DNA of 64,000 nt. Origin: Planctomycetota bacterium (GTDB lineage: Bacteria > Planctomycetota > UBA8742 > UBA2392). The translations under genes and the position numbers were made by a program. The stretch spans positions 5,853 to 69,852 of the forward strand of contig JAJVIO010000034.1 in assembly GCA_022071975.1 (NCBI GenBank), read 5' to 3'. Positions 2,592 to 50,465 of the stretch are shown piece by piece (position 1 is the stretch's first letter; every line of letters starts with the position of its first letter). The notes below the pieces were generated by a model. That model saw only the letters and a list, made by a program, of their open reading frames with translations, was not told the origin of the DNA and searched no databases.

Positions 2592-3071
2592 TTGTTCTCG
2601 CAGACTTCCGAATACGCCAGCCGCACCATGATCGAGATCGCCACCCGCCCGGGCGGCGGGCCGGTCATGTCGGCCGAGCTGGCCGAGTTGCTGGGCATTC
2701 CGCCCTCCTACCTGGCCAAGCTGCTGCAGTCGCTGGTGCGCACGCGCCTGCTGACCTCCGTGCGCGGCAAGCAGGGTGGCTTTTCACTGGCGCGATCGGC
2801 CGCGAGCATCAAGCTGCGCGACATCATCGCGCCCTTTGAAGACCTGCAGAAATACGAGGAGTGCATCCTGGGCCAACCGGTCTGCAATGAGGCCGGCGCC
2901 TGCCCCCTGCATCACTTCTGGTCGGACGTGCGTACCCGGTTCGTGGAAGAACTGAAGACCAAGAGCCTGCAGGACCTGACCGACTTCCAGCTGAGCAAGC
3001 TGAACACCATGAACGCCGGCCTGTTCAAGAAGATAGGCCGAGTCCCCGGCAAAAAGTCCCTCAACAAGTAG
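2592..3071 (+). CDS. Rrf2-family transcriptional regulator (three-Cys cluster ligand pattern)
   Basis: wHTH segment SAELAELLGIPPSYLAKLLQSLVRTRLLTSVRGKQGGFSLAR, then C-x6-C-x5-C (CILGQPVCNEAGAC). TTG start. The TAG stop lies inside a REP GTAGGG. Confidence 0.9.
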   Translation: MFSQTSEYASRTMIEIATRPGGGPVMSAELAELLGIPPSYLAKLLQSLVRTRLLTSVRGKQGGFSLARSAASIKLRDIIAPFEDLQKYEECILGQPVCNEAGACPLHHFWSDVRTRFVEELKTKSLQDLTDFQLSKLNTMNAGLFKKIGRVPGKKSLNK

Positions 3072-3307
3072 GGACGCGCCGTGGGGCAGACATCCTGTCT
3101 GCCCTGTAGGGACACGCGGCAGTGTGTCCCCCGCCGTGGGGCAGGCTGCCAGCCTGCCTGTAGTTCGTGATGTGGACCATTGGCGGCAACACGTAGGGAC
3201 ACGCGGCAGCGTGTCCCAGGCCGTGGGGCAGGCTGCCAGCCTGCCTGTAGTTCGTGATGTGGACCGGTGGCGGCAACACGTAGGGACACGCTGCCGCGTG
3301 TCCCTAC
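3068..3307. repeat. REP array: GTAG + GGGACAC..GTGTCCC hairpins in an 87-bp tandem unit (starts 3106, 3193, 3280), last copy inverted
   Basis: gtagggacacgcggcag(t/c)gtgtccc occurs at 3106 and 3193. Each is followed by a second hairpin ggcaggctgccagcctgcc. The copy at 3280-3307 has the reverse-complemented loop (gctgccgc). A degenerate copy sits at 3068-3105. Confidence 0.85.
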
Positions 3308-3376
3308 TTTCGCGGCCGTCCGCGCGGGCGAAAGGGGTCTGGCTCCGCTTGCGGTGCCTGACCCCTTTCGCCCGGC

Positions 3377-4189
3377 TCACCCCTCGGCTTTCTTAGTCCG
3401 GCCTCGCGGACGAATCGTTGATTCCAGCCCCAGCTTGCGCGCGGCGTTCTTGCGCCAGGGATCGTCACTAAACGGCGAGCCCCGGTTCACGCACTCGCGC
3501 AGCTTCGCTAGCTGCTCAGCCTCTTCTTCACGGTTCACAAAACGCAACCAAGGCTGCGGCCGCGGCGTAGGCCCCTCCACCAGCCAGTGGGCGAGCGGAA
3601 AAGGGTCAGGCTCCCCGGGGTCTGGCTCCTTTTCCGGCCGGCGCAGTTTGCCGGACGGAAAAGGTGCCTGACCCCCTCCCGAGCCCGAATACAGCCAGTC
3701 CTGGGCCTTGGCGACCATGCCCGCGCGCACGGGGTTGCGCTCGACGTAGCGCAGCACTGACAAAAGGTGCCCGCCGGGCTCGATGGGGAAGCTGCGGTAG
3801 CGCCCCTGCCAGACATGCACCGAGCCCTTGTAGTGCTTGTGATAGCGCCGCACATGGCAGGTGGCAGCCCACTGCATGAAGGCCTGCAGGTCGCCGTCGC
3901 GCCGGGGCCACAGCTCCAAATGGAAGTGGTTGGTCATCAAAACCCAACCCCGCAGGTGGATATCGAACCGCTTGCAGGCCTGCCCTGAGTTTGTCGAAGA
4001 GCCAGGGAAAGGATGCGCTCAAAGGCCGCGAAGCCTGCCAGCCGGCCTGTCCACTGAAGCTTTTGCGAAGGTGGAAGCCGAGGCGAAGGCTGGGTCTTCG
4101 GGCTTGTGGAATACGTTAGCCCGGCCGTTACCCCGGTTGATAACATGGTAACAGATGCCACCGCGGGCGGAGCGAAGAGGTCGAGCCAT
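3377..4189 (-). pseudogene. REP-associated tyrosine transposase (RAYT, Y1/IS200-like), disrupted
   Basis: From ATG 4189: MARPLRSARGGICYHVINRGNGRANVFHKPED. Downstream: LMTNHFHLELWP...WQGRYRSFPIE...RYVERNPVRAGMV...LGLESTIRPRGR. There is an in-frame TGA at 4021-4019, and a homolog-like AAFERIL segment sits in another frame, so the gene has at least two frame disruptions. Confidence 0.8.
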
Positions 4190-6360: not shown

Positions 6361-6446
6361 GGGCCACGAAAACACAAAAGGTACTGCCACGAAAAAGGCT
6401 TTGCTTCGTGCCGCAGTTGTTTGGTGTTTTTGTGTTTTCGTGGCCC
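6361..6446. repeat. 19-bp perfect inverted repeat (gggccacgaaaacacaaaa / ttttgtgttttcgtggccc) with 48-nt spacer
   Basis: Arms at 6361-6379 and 6428-6446. The spacer holds an inner cacgaa/ttcgtg pair. Confidence 0.8.
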
Positions 6447-40253: not shown

Positions 40254-43200
40254 CTACTGCAGCGCCTTGTACAGCAGCCGCAGCGGATGCACCACCTGCA
40301 CGCCGTCATTTACCTGCCCTGAGCCTGTCGAAGGGCCATCTTCGCTGGTCTTTACTCCCTGCCGGATCTGCGTCTGGCAGATGCCGCAGCTTGAGGTCAC
40401 GACGTCCGGCTTCGCCAGGTTGATCTTCGTGAACAGCGGCTGGCCGATCTTGATGCTCATGTCGAAGTTGTCGGTCTTCAAGCCGAAGGTGCCCGACAGG
40501 CCGCAACAACCCGCGTTCAAATCCACGGTCGTGCCCTCATCCAGCAGGTCGATCAGCGCCTTGGCCGCGTCGCCGATCTTCAGCACCTTGCTGTGGCACG
40601 GCAGGTGCCAGGCCACCCGCTTGCCCAGCGGCTTGAGCTGCTTGCGCATCTCGGGCTGCTTGAACACCTCCAGCAGCATGGCGTGGGCATCCAGGCAGGC
40701 ATCCGCGACCTCATGGGTGTAGCCGGTGTCGTGGATGCGCGTCCATTCGCGCGCGGCCGCGAGCATGCAGCTCGGCGCGCTGAACACGATTTTCGCGCCG
40801 CGCCGCACGGGTTTGAGCAGCTTGTCGACGTTCTCCTGGATGTCGGCCCTGGCGCCGCGGTTGTCGCCCTGGGTGATCTTGCTGATGCCGCAGCAGTTCA
40901 GCGCGGGCGTGTGCACCGTGATGCCGAGCGCGGTCAGGATTTCCACCAGCGTGGCCTTCTCGCCGTCGGGGTCGTAGTACTCGGCGTAGCAGCCTGGAAA
41001 CACCACGACTTCGGTGGGCAGCTTGGCGCGCACCTCGGCCGGCACTTCCAGCGGCTTGAGGCGCTTCACCCCGTGGGGCTTGTGGTACTCGGGCAGCTTG
41101 CGGCGCTCATCAAGGCCCGTCACGCTCTGGGCCATGCCGCGCAGGAAGCGGTTGCGCAGGATTGTGTTGGCCATGCCCGCCACCTTCTGGCCGGCCTTGC
41201 CCATCTTGTCGGGTTTGCTGAGCAGATCGGCCACCATGCCGCCCTTGCCCTTGCGGTCGATGAACTGCTCGCGGAACACCATGCTGATGCCGGGGATGTC
41301 GACCTGGGTGGGGCACTCCACCAGGCACTGCTCGCAGGCGATGCACAGGTCGATGTTGGCCTTGAACTCGGCGTCCAGCAGCAGGTTGACGTCCAGGCGC
41401 CCGGCCACCACGCCGCGCAGCAGGTTGGCCTTGGCGCGCGCGCTGTATTTTTCTTCCTTGCCGACGCGCATAAGCGGGCAGTAGTTGCGGCACTTGCCGC
41501 AGCCGTGGCACTTCTCGATTTCCTCAAGCACCGAGGGCCGGTCCAGCACCGTGCCGGTGGGCTGACGCGCGTAGTCTTCGCCCACACGCAGGAACGATGT
41601 GATGCTTCGGAGCGCAGGCGTCCCGCCCCCGGCATGCTCTGGCACCGGCCGGAGGCCCGTGCCAGTAGCAGGCGGGACGCCTGCGCTCCCAACCTTGTTC
41701 AGCGGATTCAGCAGGAAGCGCGGATCAAACAGCGCCTTCACCTGCTCGAACAGCGGGTACACCTCGCCGTACATGCGCTTCAGGTACGGCGTGCGCATCA
41801 GGCCGTCGCCGTGCTCGCCGCTGATGGTGCCCTTCAGGCCTTTCACCAGCTCGAACACCTCGTCGGCCGCTTTCCGCATGCGTTCGCGGTCGGCGGGGTC
41901 TTTGCAGTTGGCGAAAGGGTTGACGTGCAGGTTGCCCTCGCCGCCGTGTCCGAACAGGTGGGCCGTGAAGCCGTTGGCTTCACAAATGCGTTTGAAGCCT
42001 TCGATGAACTGCGGCAGCTTCCAGGGCGGCACGGCGCAGTCCTCGATCCAGCGGGTGGGCTTGTGGTCGCCCTTCACGCGGCTCAGGATCGGGCTGGCCA
42101 CCTTGCGCACCGTCCATGCTTTCTCCAGTTCGGCGGCGTCGTAGGCGGCTTTGCCGTCGAAGGCCGGGCCCTGTTTCACGCACAGATCCAGCGCGGCGTC
42201 CACGGATTTCGCCGTGTCGCGCTCGTCGTCGGCCCAGTATTCCACAATCAGCATGGACTGCAGACGCTCTGGAATGCCCTCGGCCAGGCGCGGGTCGCTG
42301 CGCGCCGCCACGTCGATGAAGCTGCGGTCCAGCACCTCCAGCTTGGTCGGCCGTGTGTTCAGCAGTTTCACCACGCCCTCGGCCATGGCCTGGTTGCTGT
42401 CGAAGTACAGCGTCAGGCCGGCCTGTTTGCGCGGGAGTTTCAGCACGCGCAGCTTTGCTTCAAGCAGGATGCCGAGCGTTCCCTCGCTGCCGCTGAACAG
42501 CCGGGGCAGATCGAGAATGCCGCCTTCGGCGTCGAACTCCGTGCGCGGGTAGTAGGCCTGGATGTCGACGCCCGAGTTGTCGGAATGCAGCAGCTCGAAC
42601 AGGTTGTAGCCGCTGCTGCTGCGGGTGGCTTCCGGCCGTTGCTCTTTCAACAGCTTCGCGTTGTCGCGCGCCAGCTTGAACAGCGCCTCGGCAATCCGCT
42701 GTTCCGCGGCTGTGGCGTCGGCGGGAAACTCGACTGCGCCGTTCGCGACCTTCAGCGGCCGTAACTTGGCGCGTTCGCCGTCGGGCAGCAGCACGTCCAG
42801 CTCAAGCAGGTAGTCCTTGGCGGTGCCCCAGCGGATCGACTTGGCGCCGCCGCTGTTGTTGCTGACCATGGCGCCGACGGTGCACCAGGGGCTGCTGCTG
42901 GGGTCGGGCGGCCAGAACATCCCGAAGCTGCCCAGCTCGGCGTCGAAGTCGTCTTTCACTACGCCCGGCTGCACACGCGCCCAGCCGTGGCTGGGCTGCA
43001 CTTCGATGATGCGATTCATGTGCACCGAGAAATCCAGGATGATGCCCTGGCCCAGGGATTGGCCCGCAACGCCCGAGCCCGCGCCGCGGCATGTGATCGG
43101 CACACCGTGCTCGCGCGCGAACTGCATGGCCTTGGCCACGTCGTCGGCGTCCATGGGCTCGACCACGCAGCTGGGCCACAGTTCAACGATGCTGGCGCTG

Positions 43201-43346
43201 CTGGCGTACAGGGCGCGGCTGATGTCGTCCCAGCGTACCGCGCCGCGGACGTTGCGGCGCAGGCGCGAGTAATCAACCGGGTACAGCGGCTTTGAATACG
43301 CTCGGGCGTCGGCCTGTGCGGTGCTCATGGCACGGCACTCTAGCAT
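40254..43346 (-). CDS. FAD-binding oxidase (GlcD-like) fused to 4Fe-4S and CCG (GlcF/HdrD-like) domains, YdiJ-like
   Basis: N-terminal FAD_binding_4 (RGAGSGVAGQS). Ferredoxin motifs CHGCGKCRNYCP and CIACEQCLVECP. The C-terminal half is Cys-rich (PCH, CCG). Confidence 0.9.
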   Translation of the reverse strand: MLECRAMSTAQADARAYSKPLYPVDYSRLRRNVRGAVRWDDISRALYASSASIVELWPSCVVEPMDADDVAKAMQFAREHGVPITCRGAGSGVAGQSLGQGIILDFSVHMNRIIEVQPSHGWARVQPGVVKDDFDAELGSFGMFWPPDPSSSPWCTVGAMVSNNSGGAKSIRWGTAKDYLLELDVLLPDGERAKLRPLKVANGAVEFPADATAAEQRIAEALFKLARDNAKLLKEQRPEATRSSSGYNLFELLHSDNSGVDIQAYYPRTEFDAEGGILDLPRLFSGSEGTLGILLEAKLRVLKLPRKQAGLTLYFDSNQAMAEGVVKLLNTRPTKLEVLDRSFIDVAARSDPRLAEGIPERLQSMLIVEYWADDERDTAKSVDAALDLCVKQGPAFDGKAAYDAAELEKAWTVRKVASPILSRVKGDHKPTRWIEDCAVPPWKLPQFIEGFKRICEANGFTAHLFGHGGEGNLHVNPFANCKDPADRERMRKAADEVFELVKGLKGTISGEHGDGLMRTPYLKRMYGEVYPLFEQVKALFDPRFLLNPLNKVGSAGVPPATGTGLRPVPEHAGGGTPALRSITSFLRVGEDYARQPTGTVLDRPSVLEEIEKCHGCGKCRNYCPLMRVGKEEKYSARAKANLLRGVVAGRLDVNLLLDAEFKANIDLCIACEQCLVECPTQVDIPGISMVFREQFIDRKGKGGMVADLLSKPDKMGKAGQKVAGMANTILRNRFLRGMAQSVTGLDERRKLPEYHKPHGVKRLKPLEVPAEVRAKLPTEVVVFPGCYAEYYDPDGEKATLVEILTALGITVHTPALNCCGISKITQGDNRGARADIQENVDKLLKPVRRGAKIVFSAPSCMLAAAREWTRIHDTGYTHEVADACLDAHAMLLEVFKQPEMRKQLKPLGKRVAWHLPCHSKVLKIGDAAKALIDLLDEGTTVDLNAGCCGLSGTFGLKTDNFDMSIKIGQPLFTKINLAKPDVVTSSCGICQTQIRQGVKTSEDGPSTGSGQVNDGVQVVHPLRLLYKALQ
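41609..41689. repeat. 81-bp nested perfect palindrome embedded in frame in the oxidase ORF
   Basis: Outer arms ggagcgcaggcgtcccgcc (41609-41627) and ggcgggacgcctgcgctcc (41671-41689). Inner arms ctggcac (41639-45) and gtgccag (41659-65). It encodes GSAGVPPATGTGLRPVPEHAGGGTPAL. Confidence 0.9.
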
Positions 43347-47457: not shown

Positions 47458-47574
47458 CATGCGCATCTTGCGCATGGGTAGCGGCGGCCTCTGGCCGCCG
47501 ATGGCGCGTGCTGGAAGCACGCGGAACTCATTCGCTGGAAGCGAATGCCACTACTCACGGCCTGGAAGGCCGTG
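47458..47574. repeat. array of five hairpins, three with unrelated 7-bp stems but identical TGGAA loops
   Basis: catgcgca-tct-tgcgcatg. cggcggcc-tct-ggccgccg. cgcgtgc-tggaa-gcacgcg (47505-23). cattcgc-tggaa-gcgaatg (47529-47). cacggcc-tggaa-ggccgtg (47556-74). Confidence 0.8.
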
Positions 47575-48450
47575 CTACGCCGCTTTAATTACCGGGATGC
47601 CGGCGGCGTCCTTTACCTCGGCGAGTTTCATCACTTCGGCCAGGTACTCGTCGTGCAGGTAGGTGTGCGTGAGGCGTTTCTTGCCGAACCAGCGCCAGAA
47701 CGCCAGCTTGCGCAGGCTCTTGCGCGCCACCGCCCCCACGATCAGCCGGAAGCTTTCGAAACGGCCGTAGTCGGCCAGGGGCTTGGCGGTCATGCCCATG
47801 CGCTGCAGGCGCAGGTCGGTGGTCTGGATGATCCTGGCCAGGTACTCGGGAATCTGGCGCATCACGGGGTGGTCCTGGTCCACGCGTTTGGCGATCCACT
47901 TCTCGAAACGCTTCACCACCCACAGGCTCAGCAGGTGCAGGCCCAGCAGCCGCCTGCGCAGCCTCGGGTTGCGCGCCAGCGCCTTCATGGTCTGCTGCTC
48001 GCCGAAATCGACGTGGCTTTCCTCCTGGCGCGCGGCCGCGTCCATGCGCTTGGCCAGCTTCTCGTCGTCGATGCAGTTGATGATGGCGTAGAAGATCATC
48101 AGCACGAAACCCTCGCCCTGGGCCATTTCCAGGGCGCAGTGTTCATGCCAGTCGTCGCTTTCGCTGCTGAGGAACTTCACCACCGGGTGGACCTTCACGG
48201 GGCGCGCGCCGAGCCACTTGAAGAACTCCATGAACACGTCCACGTGCTGCAACTCCTCGATGCACTGGCGAGCCAGGAACTTGGCGGATTCGACGTCCGG
48301 CGCGTGCAGTATCCAGTGGCCGACCTGGATGCCGGTGACCTCGCCATAGAGGAACTGGCTGGCGATCCAGGCCAGCAGGTCGCGGTCCTTGACGCGGTCA
48401 AACTTCGCGCCCTTGAAGTCGAAAGCCATTTCTTCACGGCTCAGCAGCAT
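47575..48450 (-). CDS. ferritin-like di-iron carboxylate superfamily protein
   Basis: Two E...ExxH motifs (YGEVTG...CIEELQH and ...ARQEESH). All-helical. Confidence 0.7.
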   Translation of the reverse strand: MLLSREEMAFDFKGAKFDRVKDRDLLAWIASQFLYGEVTGIQVGHWILHAPDVESAKFLARQCIEELQHVDVFMEFFKWLGARPVKVHPVVKFLSSESDDWHEHCALEMAQGEGFVLMIFYAIINCIDDEKLAKRMDAAARQEESHVDFGEQQTMKALARNPRLRRRLLGLHLLSLWVVKRFEKWIAKRVDQDHPVMRQIPEYLARIIQTTDLRLQRMGMTAKPLADYGRFESFRLIVGAVARKSLRKLAFWRWFGKKRLTHTYLHDEYLAEVMKLAEVKDAAGIPVIKAA

Positions 48451-50360: not shown

Positions 50361-50465
50361 CAACAGCAAATGAACAATAACCAATTACCAATTTTCAATG
50401 AGCTGCCCCGGTCGCGGGCGCCAATTGGAAATTGGTTATTGGTTATTGGTAATTCGCTGTTCGAA
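50361..50465. repeat. heptamer arrays in dyad symmetry (CAATNNN x4-6 ... ATTGGNN x4) around a GC core
   Basis: Left arm: caacagc aaatgaa caataac caattac caatttt caatgag. Core: ctgccccggtcgcgggcgcc. Right arm: attggaa attggtt attggtt attggta attcgct gttcgaa. Confidence 0.85.

Follow-up and report, generated by a model that had tools for sequence, protein, structure and literature searches.

Palindromic repeats that lie within bacterial genes have been described before. Intragenic repetitive extragenic palindromes (REPs) are most numerous in Opitutus terrae and Rickettsia conorii, dimers of such REPs encode 20-30 residues, and in two Xanthomonas species recB carries different REPs at nearly the same position (Di Nocera, De Gregorio and Rocco 2013, PMC3733652). 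The Rickettsia palindromic elements (RPEs; Ogata et al. 2000, as summarised in PMC3733652) are in-frame palindromes in functional genes, at positions compatible with the protein fold; two of them, RPE-4 and RPE-6, bear a CGTC tag and lack an associated transposase (PMC3733652). In REPIN-RAYT systems (Bertels and Rainey 2011, PMC3116915), inverted REPs and the spacer between them form a long hairpin (the REPIN), single REPs are remnants, and copies flank the single-copy gene for a REP-associated tyrosine transposase (RAYT); REPINs are described there as lineage-specific, vertically inherited and extragenic. Here we examine a palindromic insert of 81 nt at 41609-41689 of a stretch of DNA from a Planctomycetota bacterium (contig JAJVIO010000034.1; the whole analysed stretch, 64,000 nt, is hereafter the window), which lies in a minus-strand gene for an FAD oxidase. 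The insert is probably an in-frame REP doublet, REPIN-like and delivered by a RAYT, that is tolerated as a disordered linker at the junction between a GlcD-like and an Fe-S/CCG module.

The insert is exactly 27 codons long and is bounded by 19-bp arms, GGAGCGCAGGCGTCCCGCC at 41609-41627 and GGCGGGACGCCTGCGCTCC at 41671-41689, that are perfectly complementary; the original prediction, made from the letters of the window, had claimed as much, and sequence, inverted-repeat search and fold all bear it out. Pairing of the arms reaches 22 nt at 95% complementarity (41606-41627 with 41671-41692). An inner pair of 7 bp had also been proposed: an inner hairpin is present, but it is larger, with 12-nt arms at 41639-41650 and 41654-41665 that are 92% complementary (one mismatch). 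This hairpin, CTGGCACCGGCC-GGA-GGCCCGTGCCAG at 41639-41665, was delimited by fold, inverted-repeat search and alignment, and its loop type, TCC/GGA, is that of the REP units described below. Folded as sense-strand RNA, the insert reaches -78.1 kcal/mol, against -46 +/- 3.9 in dinucleotide shuffles (z = -8.3; none of 200 equal), and hairpins of similar length number only four or five in the whole window. The ORF (open reading frame) reads through the insert as GSAGVPPATGTGLRPVPEHAGGGTPAL, residues 553-579; five of the six reading frames of the 81-mer are free of stops, so that read-through requires little beyond a length divisible by three. Rfam gave nothing at gathering score in the insert region, where there were sub-threshold microRNA-type hairpin matches only, and a single match at gathering score, a tRNA, in the whole window.

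The host gene (40254-43328, minus strand) was identified through Pfam, homologues, solved structures and a structural model as a GlcD-like FAD oxidase fused to a GlcF/GlpC-like Fe-S/CCG module. Its ORF spans 40254-43346 (-) and has the 1030 codons originally reported, with the frame intact on both sides of the insert, but the true start is probably M7; the resulting product of 1024 aa is identical to NCBI MCG3183605.1, from a Planctomycetes metagenome-assembled genome (MAG) that probably represents the source organism, and its homologues are 'FAD-binding protein' entries from Planctomycetota MAGs. Exact look-ups with the 1030- and 1024-aa forms gave no contig, although the cluster table contains the identical 1024-aa protein. 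Pfam places FAD_binding_4 at 58-194, FAD-oxidase_C at 305-548, 4Fe-4S domains at 609-683 and two CCG domains in the protein. The predicted interdomain position of the insert is upheld, FAD-oxidase_C ending at 548 and the ferredoxin-type domains starting from 609, with a low-confidence loop between. Moreover, solved GlcD-like chains (glycolate oxidase, LctD and D-lactate dehydrogenase) align up to query positions 542-546, their own C-terminus, which puts the insert exactly at the fusion junction. The AlphaFold2 model of the protein has a mean pLDDT (predicted local distance difference test score) of 85.9 and a pTM (predicted template modelling score) of 0.83; residues 555-578 fall below a pLDDT of 50 and adopt no secondary structure, while the flanking segments are modelled with much more confidence. 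The insert would thus be read as a Gly/Pro/Ala/Thr-rich disordered linker that leaves the enzyme intact.

That the 27 residues are an insertion, as had been proposed, is confirmed by an alignment of 40 homologues, in which the stretch between ...NPLNK(V/I) and RSITSFLR is 4-8 residues long in the majority of sequences and in every outgroup. One could instead suppose that the palindrome is an ancestral linker of the enzyme family, palindromic by accident, or that it is an assembly artefact. A close relative (P0127/L134) does share the sequence, but it is absent from all more distant homologues, and the protein or its 105-nt variant has been assembled independently both in the NCBI MAG and, from different runs, in four Logan contigs; we find either supposition scarcely credible. 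The alternative that we favour, insertion of a REP doublet, draws on the internal organisation of the element and on its occurrence elsewhere.

On the evidence of sequence, fold and alignment, the insert (41609-41689, minus strand) consists of two inverted REP-like units around the inner hairpin. The complete unit, GGAGC-GCAGGCG-TCC-CGCCTGC, lies at 41668-41689 (-), on the 5' side of the insert in the sense strand, and comprises a head, a 7-bp stem and a 3-nt loop; it was found by a strict motif scan and by a covariance model, R1, which matches at 41665-41695 (-) with 40.5 bits (E = 3e-7). Its inverted partner at 41609-41627 (+), recognised by R1 and by alignment with L134, is truncated and chimeric, reading GGAGC-GCAGGCG-TCC-CGCC and then CCC in place of TGC, and the R1 match to it is correspondingly lower (20.1 bits at 41603-41631 (+)).

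The original prediction had also taken the palindrome for a repeated element, and copies were indeed found in other genomes, with the hallmarks of REPs and REPINs. In a scan of one genome per species, the 19-mer arm is present in more than 120 genome stretches among the matches listed, spanning, by record titles, at least eight phyla; its carriers include Acidobacteriota, Verrucomicrobiota, Planctomycetota, Chloroflexota, Bacteroidota, Armatimonadota, Obscuribacterales, Pseudomonadota and others, among them the isolates Horticoccus and Opitutaceae EW11. By our own estimate, chance would produce about four matches at uniform composition and at most a few tens when GC-rich genomes are allowed for. 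The repeat unit common to these copies is (CTG)GGAGC-GCAGGCG-TCC-CGCCTGC: TGC follows the arm in 99 of 133 listed copies, completing the small hairpin GCAGGCG-TCC-CGCCTGC, CTG precedes it in 43, and for 64 an inverted partner (up to 5 mismatches in 19) lies no more than 170 nt away, across spacers of 1-121 nt. Although the partner arms were picked without regard to their own pairing, 96.8% of the cells in their stems pair, 34 cells are changed on both sides, and none of 500 shuffles matches this; sliding the partner columns reduces pairing to 32-54%. Compensatory variants of the stem include GCAGGCG/CGCCTGC, GCGGGCG/CGCCCGC, GCCGGCG/CGCCGGC and GCGGACG/CGTCCGC, among others. This covariation identifies the unit as a conserved head, GGAGC, followed by a structurally constrained stem-loop, that is, the architecture of a REP: head and loop are conserved, the head is unpaired, and the short stem covaries. 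Inverted doublets are frequent, as among REPs and REPINs, and the window element is such a doublet. A head with a GC-rich stem and a loop is the architecture recognised on single-stranded DNA by RAYT-type HUH tyrosine transposases.

Many dispersed copies within one genome are a feature of REPs; in genomes other than that of the window, the unit occurs on at least seven contigs of Opitutaceae SMAG_U2401, at no fewer than six loci of Dehalococcoidia OY282442.1 and at several loci of Blastocatellia STL-ACI6. The 22-mer had no match in viral contigs, and there is thus no sign of a phage vector. Two other kinds of repeat were set aside by inspection alone: a CRISPR (clustered regularly interspaced short palindromic repeats) repeat, there being no regularly spaced arrays, and an integron attC site, no R''/R' core sites being seen at the borders. 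In Blastocatellia and other Acidobacteriota (L028, L050, L069, L098 and L117), the GGAGC unit lies within a longer conserved repeat, ...ACGCGAAGCGCCTG-GGAGCGCAGGCGTCCCGCCTGC-TGCGAGCG(A/C)GTGCAACG(A/C)CGCTCGC..., which suggests that it may there be part of a larger composite element.

Several of the genomes that carry the unit also carry a RAYT gene beside it. Candidates were located by tblastn with E. coli RayT and IS608 TnpA query sequences, which served as pointers only, and were confirmed with Pfam and with NCBIfam NF047646 (REP-associated tyrosine transposase; cut-off 80). Scores lie above the cut-off in a Pyrinomonadaceae (L057, 91.8), two Rhodobiaceae (L071, 85.1; L046, 80.3) and a Bacteroidales (L018, 86.3), and below it in a Planctomycetota (L004, 72.2). 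The RAYT gene of L071 (2666-3265, minus strand) has inverted units on both sides, at 2642-2663 (+) and 3298-3319 (-), and in L057 and L046 one GGAGC-type unit lies within about 30 nt of the RAYT gene, so that copies flank RAYT genes in other genomes as they do in REPtrons. With a single-copy gene of about 600 bp, chance cannot account for three such adjacencies in about 120 sampled loci. The RAYTs adjacent to GGAGC units are 41-47% identical across phyla and 66% identical between the two Rhodobiaceae, and their clade comprises 5387 proteins at E <= 1e-20, named RayT by several sources.

The site in the host gene can be followed among close relatives. Orthologous genes in L001 and L122 have 92-93.5% DNA identity to the window gene, and the alignments of the three break only between ...AACAAGGT and ATCACATC..., where each has a different in-frame palindrome; that of L001 is GCGGGCTGCCAGCCCGC...GCGGGCTGGCAGCCCGC and that of L122 a heptamer-repeat palindrome, (CCCGAGT)n...(ACACGGG)n. 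There is thus turnover at this site, with three unrelated palindromes at the same codon position in genes 92-98% identical. L136, which belongs to the window's sub-clade (93-98% identity), has the L122-type palindrome, identical over the whole hairpin, and L140, whose protein is about 80% identical to that of the window, shows homology to the L122 type in its left arm. To judge by this distribution, the L122 type is probably the older one, and its place may have been taken by the window and L001 types. L134 (96-98% identity to the window) carries a 105-nt version of the window element with four complete modules, and the window 81-mer corresponds to that form minus 24 nt, bounded by an 11-nt direct repeat, GGCGGGACGCC. 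The 81-mer appears to be a 24-nt deletion derivative of the 105-nt parent form, produced by slippage between the direct repeats, and such a deletion would account for one arm being chimeric. A second in-frame palindrome, (GGGAATC)n...(CGATTCC)n, is present in L137 (10001-13105; protein P0139) at about residue 356 in window numbering; it encodes RGESGIGNRESKIAKPIADCPFPIP, inside the FAD-oxidase_C region, and folds with -49 kcal/mol, and P0004 has a related insert at the same place.

The same comparisons hold some features that would fit a palindrome formed locally during replication, through template switching or an inverted duplication of the linker, with no mobile element. In L001 and the window, a few bases of the flanking conserved codons are included in the complementarity, and the two differ in the R-S codons there (CGAAGC vs CGTTCG); some relatives' linkers are heptamer repeats, which could grow by slippage. 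For the window element we nevertheless reject such an origin, which we judge very improbable, because its arm is shared, without a difference over 19-22 nt, with the widespread unit of the unrelated genomes listed above, which there adjoins RAYT genes. For the heptamer-repeat palindromes of the relatives, a local origin could still apply.

Palindromes also recur at this junction more widely. Inserts of at least 8 aa are found at exactly this position in 10 or more of 32 close orthologues, against 1-2 at any other position, and in a rough neighbour-joining tree long linkers fall in at least three separate clades, interleaved with short-linker lineages. Of the long linkers that were viewed as DNA, all fold as hairpins (z -3 to -12) except that of L138 (z = -0.3). 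That hairpins of unrelated sequence should recur at one position, and that two genes about 7% apart should share an L122-type hairpin without a difference over 69 nt, is what might be expected if the hairpin were kept for the host, either slowing the ribosome between modules (for folding or cofactor loading) or acting as an RNase III or stability element; structure and not sequence would then be selected, and REP sequences would merely be the raw material. We consider this unlikely. Most orthologues, including the sister lineages P0005-P0009, have no hairpin, and L138 has a poor one; within a cluster at >=90% protein identity, L132 has a palindromic linker of 22 residues and L133 a linker of 8 residues that looks like a collapsed remnant. 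REP units also occur in intergenic regions and in many unrelated genes, and a permissive junction and REPs that favour existing hairpins suffice to account for the recurrence, with no host function needed.

If the insert is a REP doublet, a RAYT acting in trans would have delivered the element without target-site duplication, and the element would have been tolerated owing to its length in multiples of three, its five stop-free frames and its position at a surface junction. The site would act as a landing pad, at which older palindromes are replaced by newer ones in close relatives, and the element would then decay by slippage between its internal direct repeats. Of these steps, we infer RAYT mobilisation in this genome, translation of the insert and its neutrality. 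Several observations weigh against this reading. There is one doublet only in the 64-kb window, and no second copy of the unit. The sole RAYT-like (Y1 HUH transposase) gene of the window, at 3377-4189 (-), is frameshifted, its N-terminal ORF at 4189-4019 and its C-terminal ORF at 3955-3377 being in two frames; it belongs to another clade, with 24-35% identity to the GGAGC-adjacent RAYTs, and is flanked by a different REP type. The head of the unit, GGAG(C), is one base from the canonical GTAG, and a few of the 19-mer matches in high-GC Actinobacteria are probably due to chance. The element takes the native linker's place and is not a simple interruption of it. No direct repeat was found as a target-site duplication at the insert borders (...AACAAGGT, insert, ATCACATC...), which are inexact; since the native linker of 4-8 residues is gone, replaced and not merely interrupted, neither the insertion point nor the lack of a duplication can be read directly. 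Finally, it is the intact frame from which translation of the insert is deduced.

In-frame copies of the unit are not peculiar to this gene. Twenty-seven of the 133 listed copies lie in frames free of stops, with 100 codons or more to either side, and when ten of these were compared with Pfam, six proved to have recognised domains flanking both sides or spanning the unit. The genes concerned code for an isoleucyl-tRNA synthetase (IleRS; L079), the HATPase_c domain of a hybrid histidine kinase (L102), a class I tRNA synthetase (L115), a PSCyt2/PSD1 protein (L081), a Ser/Thr kinase with TPR repeats (L028) and a DEAD-family helicase (L080). Depending on the frame, the unit encodes the peptides SAGVPPA, AGGTPALP or QAGRLRS. 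In Planctomycetota ACE_PLA33 (L004:1063-2223 (-); JAHBYA010000004.1), a single stop-free frame of 386 codons contains, in order, the N-terminal part of FabZ, REP-encoded SSAGAPPASGRSAGAPPAPDAGAPPAS, a RAYT-like domain, ASAGEAPALH and the C-terminal part of FabZ; a whole REPtron appears to lie in frame within fabZ. In the Bacteroidales MAG (L018:2289-3548 (+)), a NUDIX domain shares one open frame with REP-encoded repeats (MPQAGSLRTKEN, twice) and with a RAYT (86 bits).

How does the element compare with the systems introduced above? The closer analogue is the intragenic GTAG-type REPs of O. terrae, rather than the Rickettsia RPEs. Like the unit described here, the GTAG-type REPs are short tagged stem-loops, often in inverted pairs, that form in-frame dimers in ordinary genes, and the GTAG-19 peptide GTGVPPV implies the same GCG-TCC-CGC loop region as SAGVPPA does here. 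They differ in that the present head is (CTG)GGAGC, not GTAG or GTGG, and in stem sequence. SAGVPPA, GTPAL, GCAGGCG and GGAGCGC are absent from the supplementary tables of PMC3733652, and our literature search found no paper giving the exact repeat strings of the unit; nor does PMC3733652 have an account of palindrome replacement among near-identical genomes, as seen here. With REPIN-RAYT systems the element shares the long hairpin of inverted REPs and spacer, the single units and, in other genomes, the association with a single-copy RAYT gene; unlike REPINs as described (PMC3116915), the same 19-22-mer occurs in at least eight phyla and the window copy is in frame. The likeness to Rickettsia RPEs, raised in the original prediction, holds for behaviour, in that the element is inserted in frame, with reading frame and conserved domains kept, and is tolerated in a loop; homology to RPEs is not established, Rickettsia belongs to another phylum and has a different base composition, and the comparison is one of behaviour and not of sequence. 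RPE-1 is also longer, at about 100-150 bp. Bacterial miniature inverted-repeat transposable elements (MITEs; Correia/NEMIS, ERIC, Nezha) are likewise small non-coding inverted-repeat elements that form hairpins and can be transcribed together with genes. The terminal inverted repeats of MITEs, however, stem from insertion sequences, and MITEs create target-site duplications, whereas here each arm is a tagged stem-loop, no duplication is visible flanking the repeats, and the associated enzyme is a Y1 HUH transposase.

In-frame REP insertion is thus already known as a kind, and the domain-fusion junction of a planctomycete is an added example. Two aspects appear to be undescribed in the literature that we searched, namely the presence of three unrelated palindromes at one codon position in near-identical genes and the occurrence of one 19-22-nt unit next to diverged RAYTs across phyla. 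A bolder proposition, which we put forward tentatively and regard as rather doubtful, is that a single, exceptionally conserved GGAGC REP-RAYT system exists in at least eight phyla, and that the GlcD/Fe-S junction is a place where RAYT-type enzymes repeatedly swap palindromes within <2-7% divergence. If palindrome exchange at the junction is real, it would provide a natural, in-frame and selectable reporter of REPIN transposition, which has so far been hard to observe directly. More generally, in-frame REP and RPE insertions represent selfish palindromes that lengthen proteins at permissive loops without destroying them. The comparative series at this site, consisting of an empty site, three palindromes, a parent form with its deletion derivative and an apparent collapsed remnant, may be used to measure rates of element arrival, replacement and decay, and a 19-22-nt unit adjoining RAYTs in several phyla bears on the strict vertical inheritance of REPIN-RAYT systems. 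For annotation, SAGVPPA and AGGTPALP peptides in proteins of the Planctomycetes-Verrucomicrobia-Chlamydiae group, Acidobacteriota and Chloroflexota should be recognised as REP-encoded.

Other palindromes are scattered through the window. The insert had been assigned to a hairpin type that otherwise lies between genes here; REP-like hairpins do occur intergenically, in two clusters, but they are of other sequence families. Directly downstream of the RAYT-like gene, at 3100-3310, is a tandem cluster of GTAG-tagged REP hairpins, with units of about 90 bp that each contain a GTAG-GGACACGC-GGCA-GCGTGTCC-C hairpin and a GGCAGGCTGCCAGCCTGCC hairpin, the latter resembling the L001 linker palindrome. 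The second cluster, at 47460-47585, consists of five GC-rich hairpins, all of them short, whose loops are TCT or TGGAA; a GTAG tag is present in two. A perfect hairpin with 19-bp arms (GGGCCACGAAAACACAAAA ... TTTTGTGTTTTCGTGGCCC) at 6361-6446 is AT-richer than the other hairpins of the window, and its 48-nt spacer itself holds a hairpin. Near the C-terminus of the host protein (residues ~1005-1012; window 40290-40340) there is an insert of 8 residues, PSTGSGQV, relative to L122 and L001; it is common to L134 and L136 and has low pLDDT, and was rejected as a further palindrome since it is not a hairpin. An imperfect, AT-rich palindrome of about 100 bp (AACAGCAAATGAACAATAACCAATTACC...) lies at 50362-50461, and a copy about 74% identical to it is found in L122 (8102-8200), immediately behind the FAD oxidase gene; the two represent another, unrelated family of palindromes, located at different places in close relatives.

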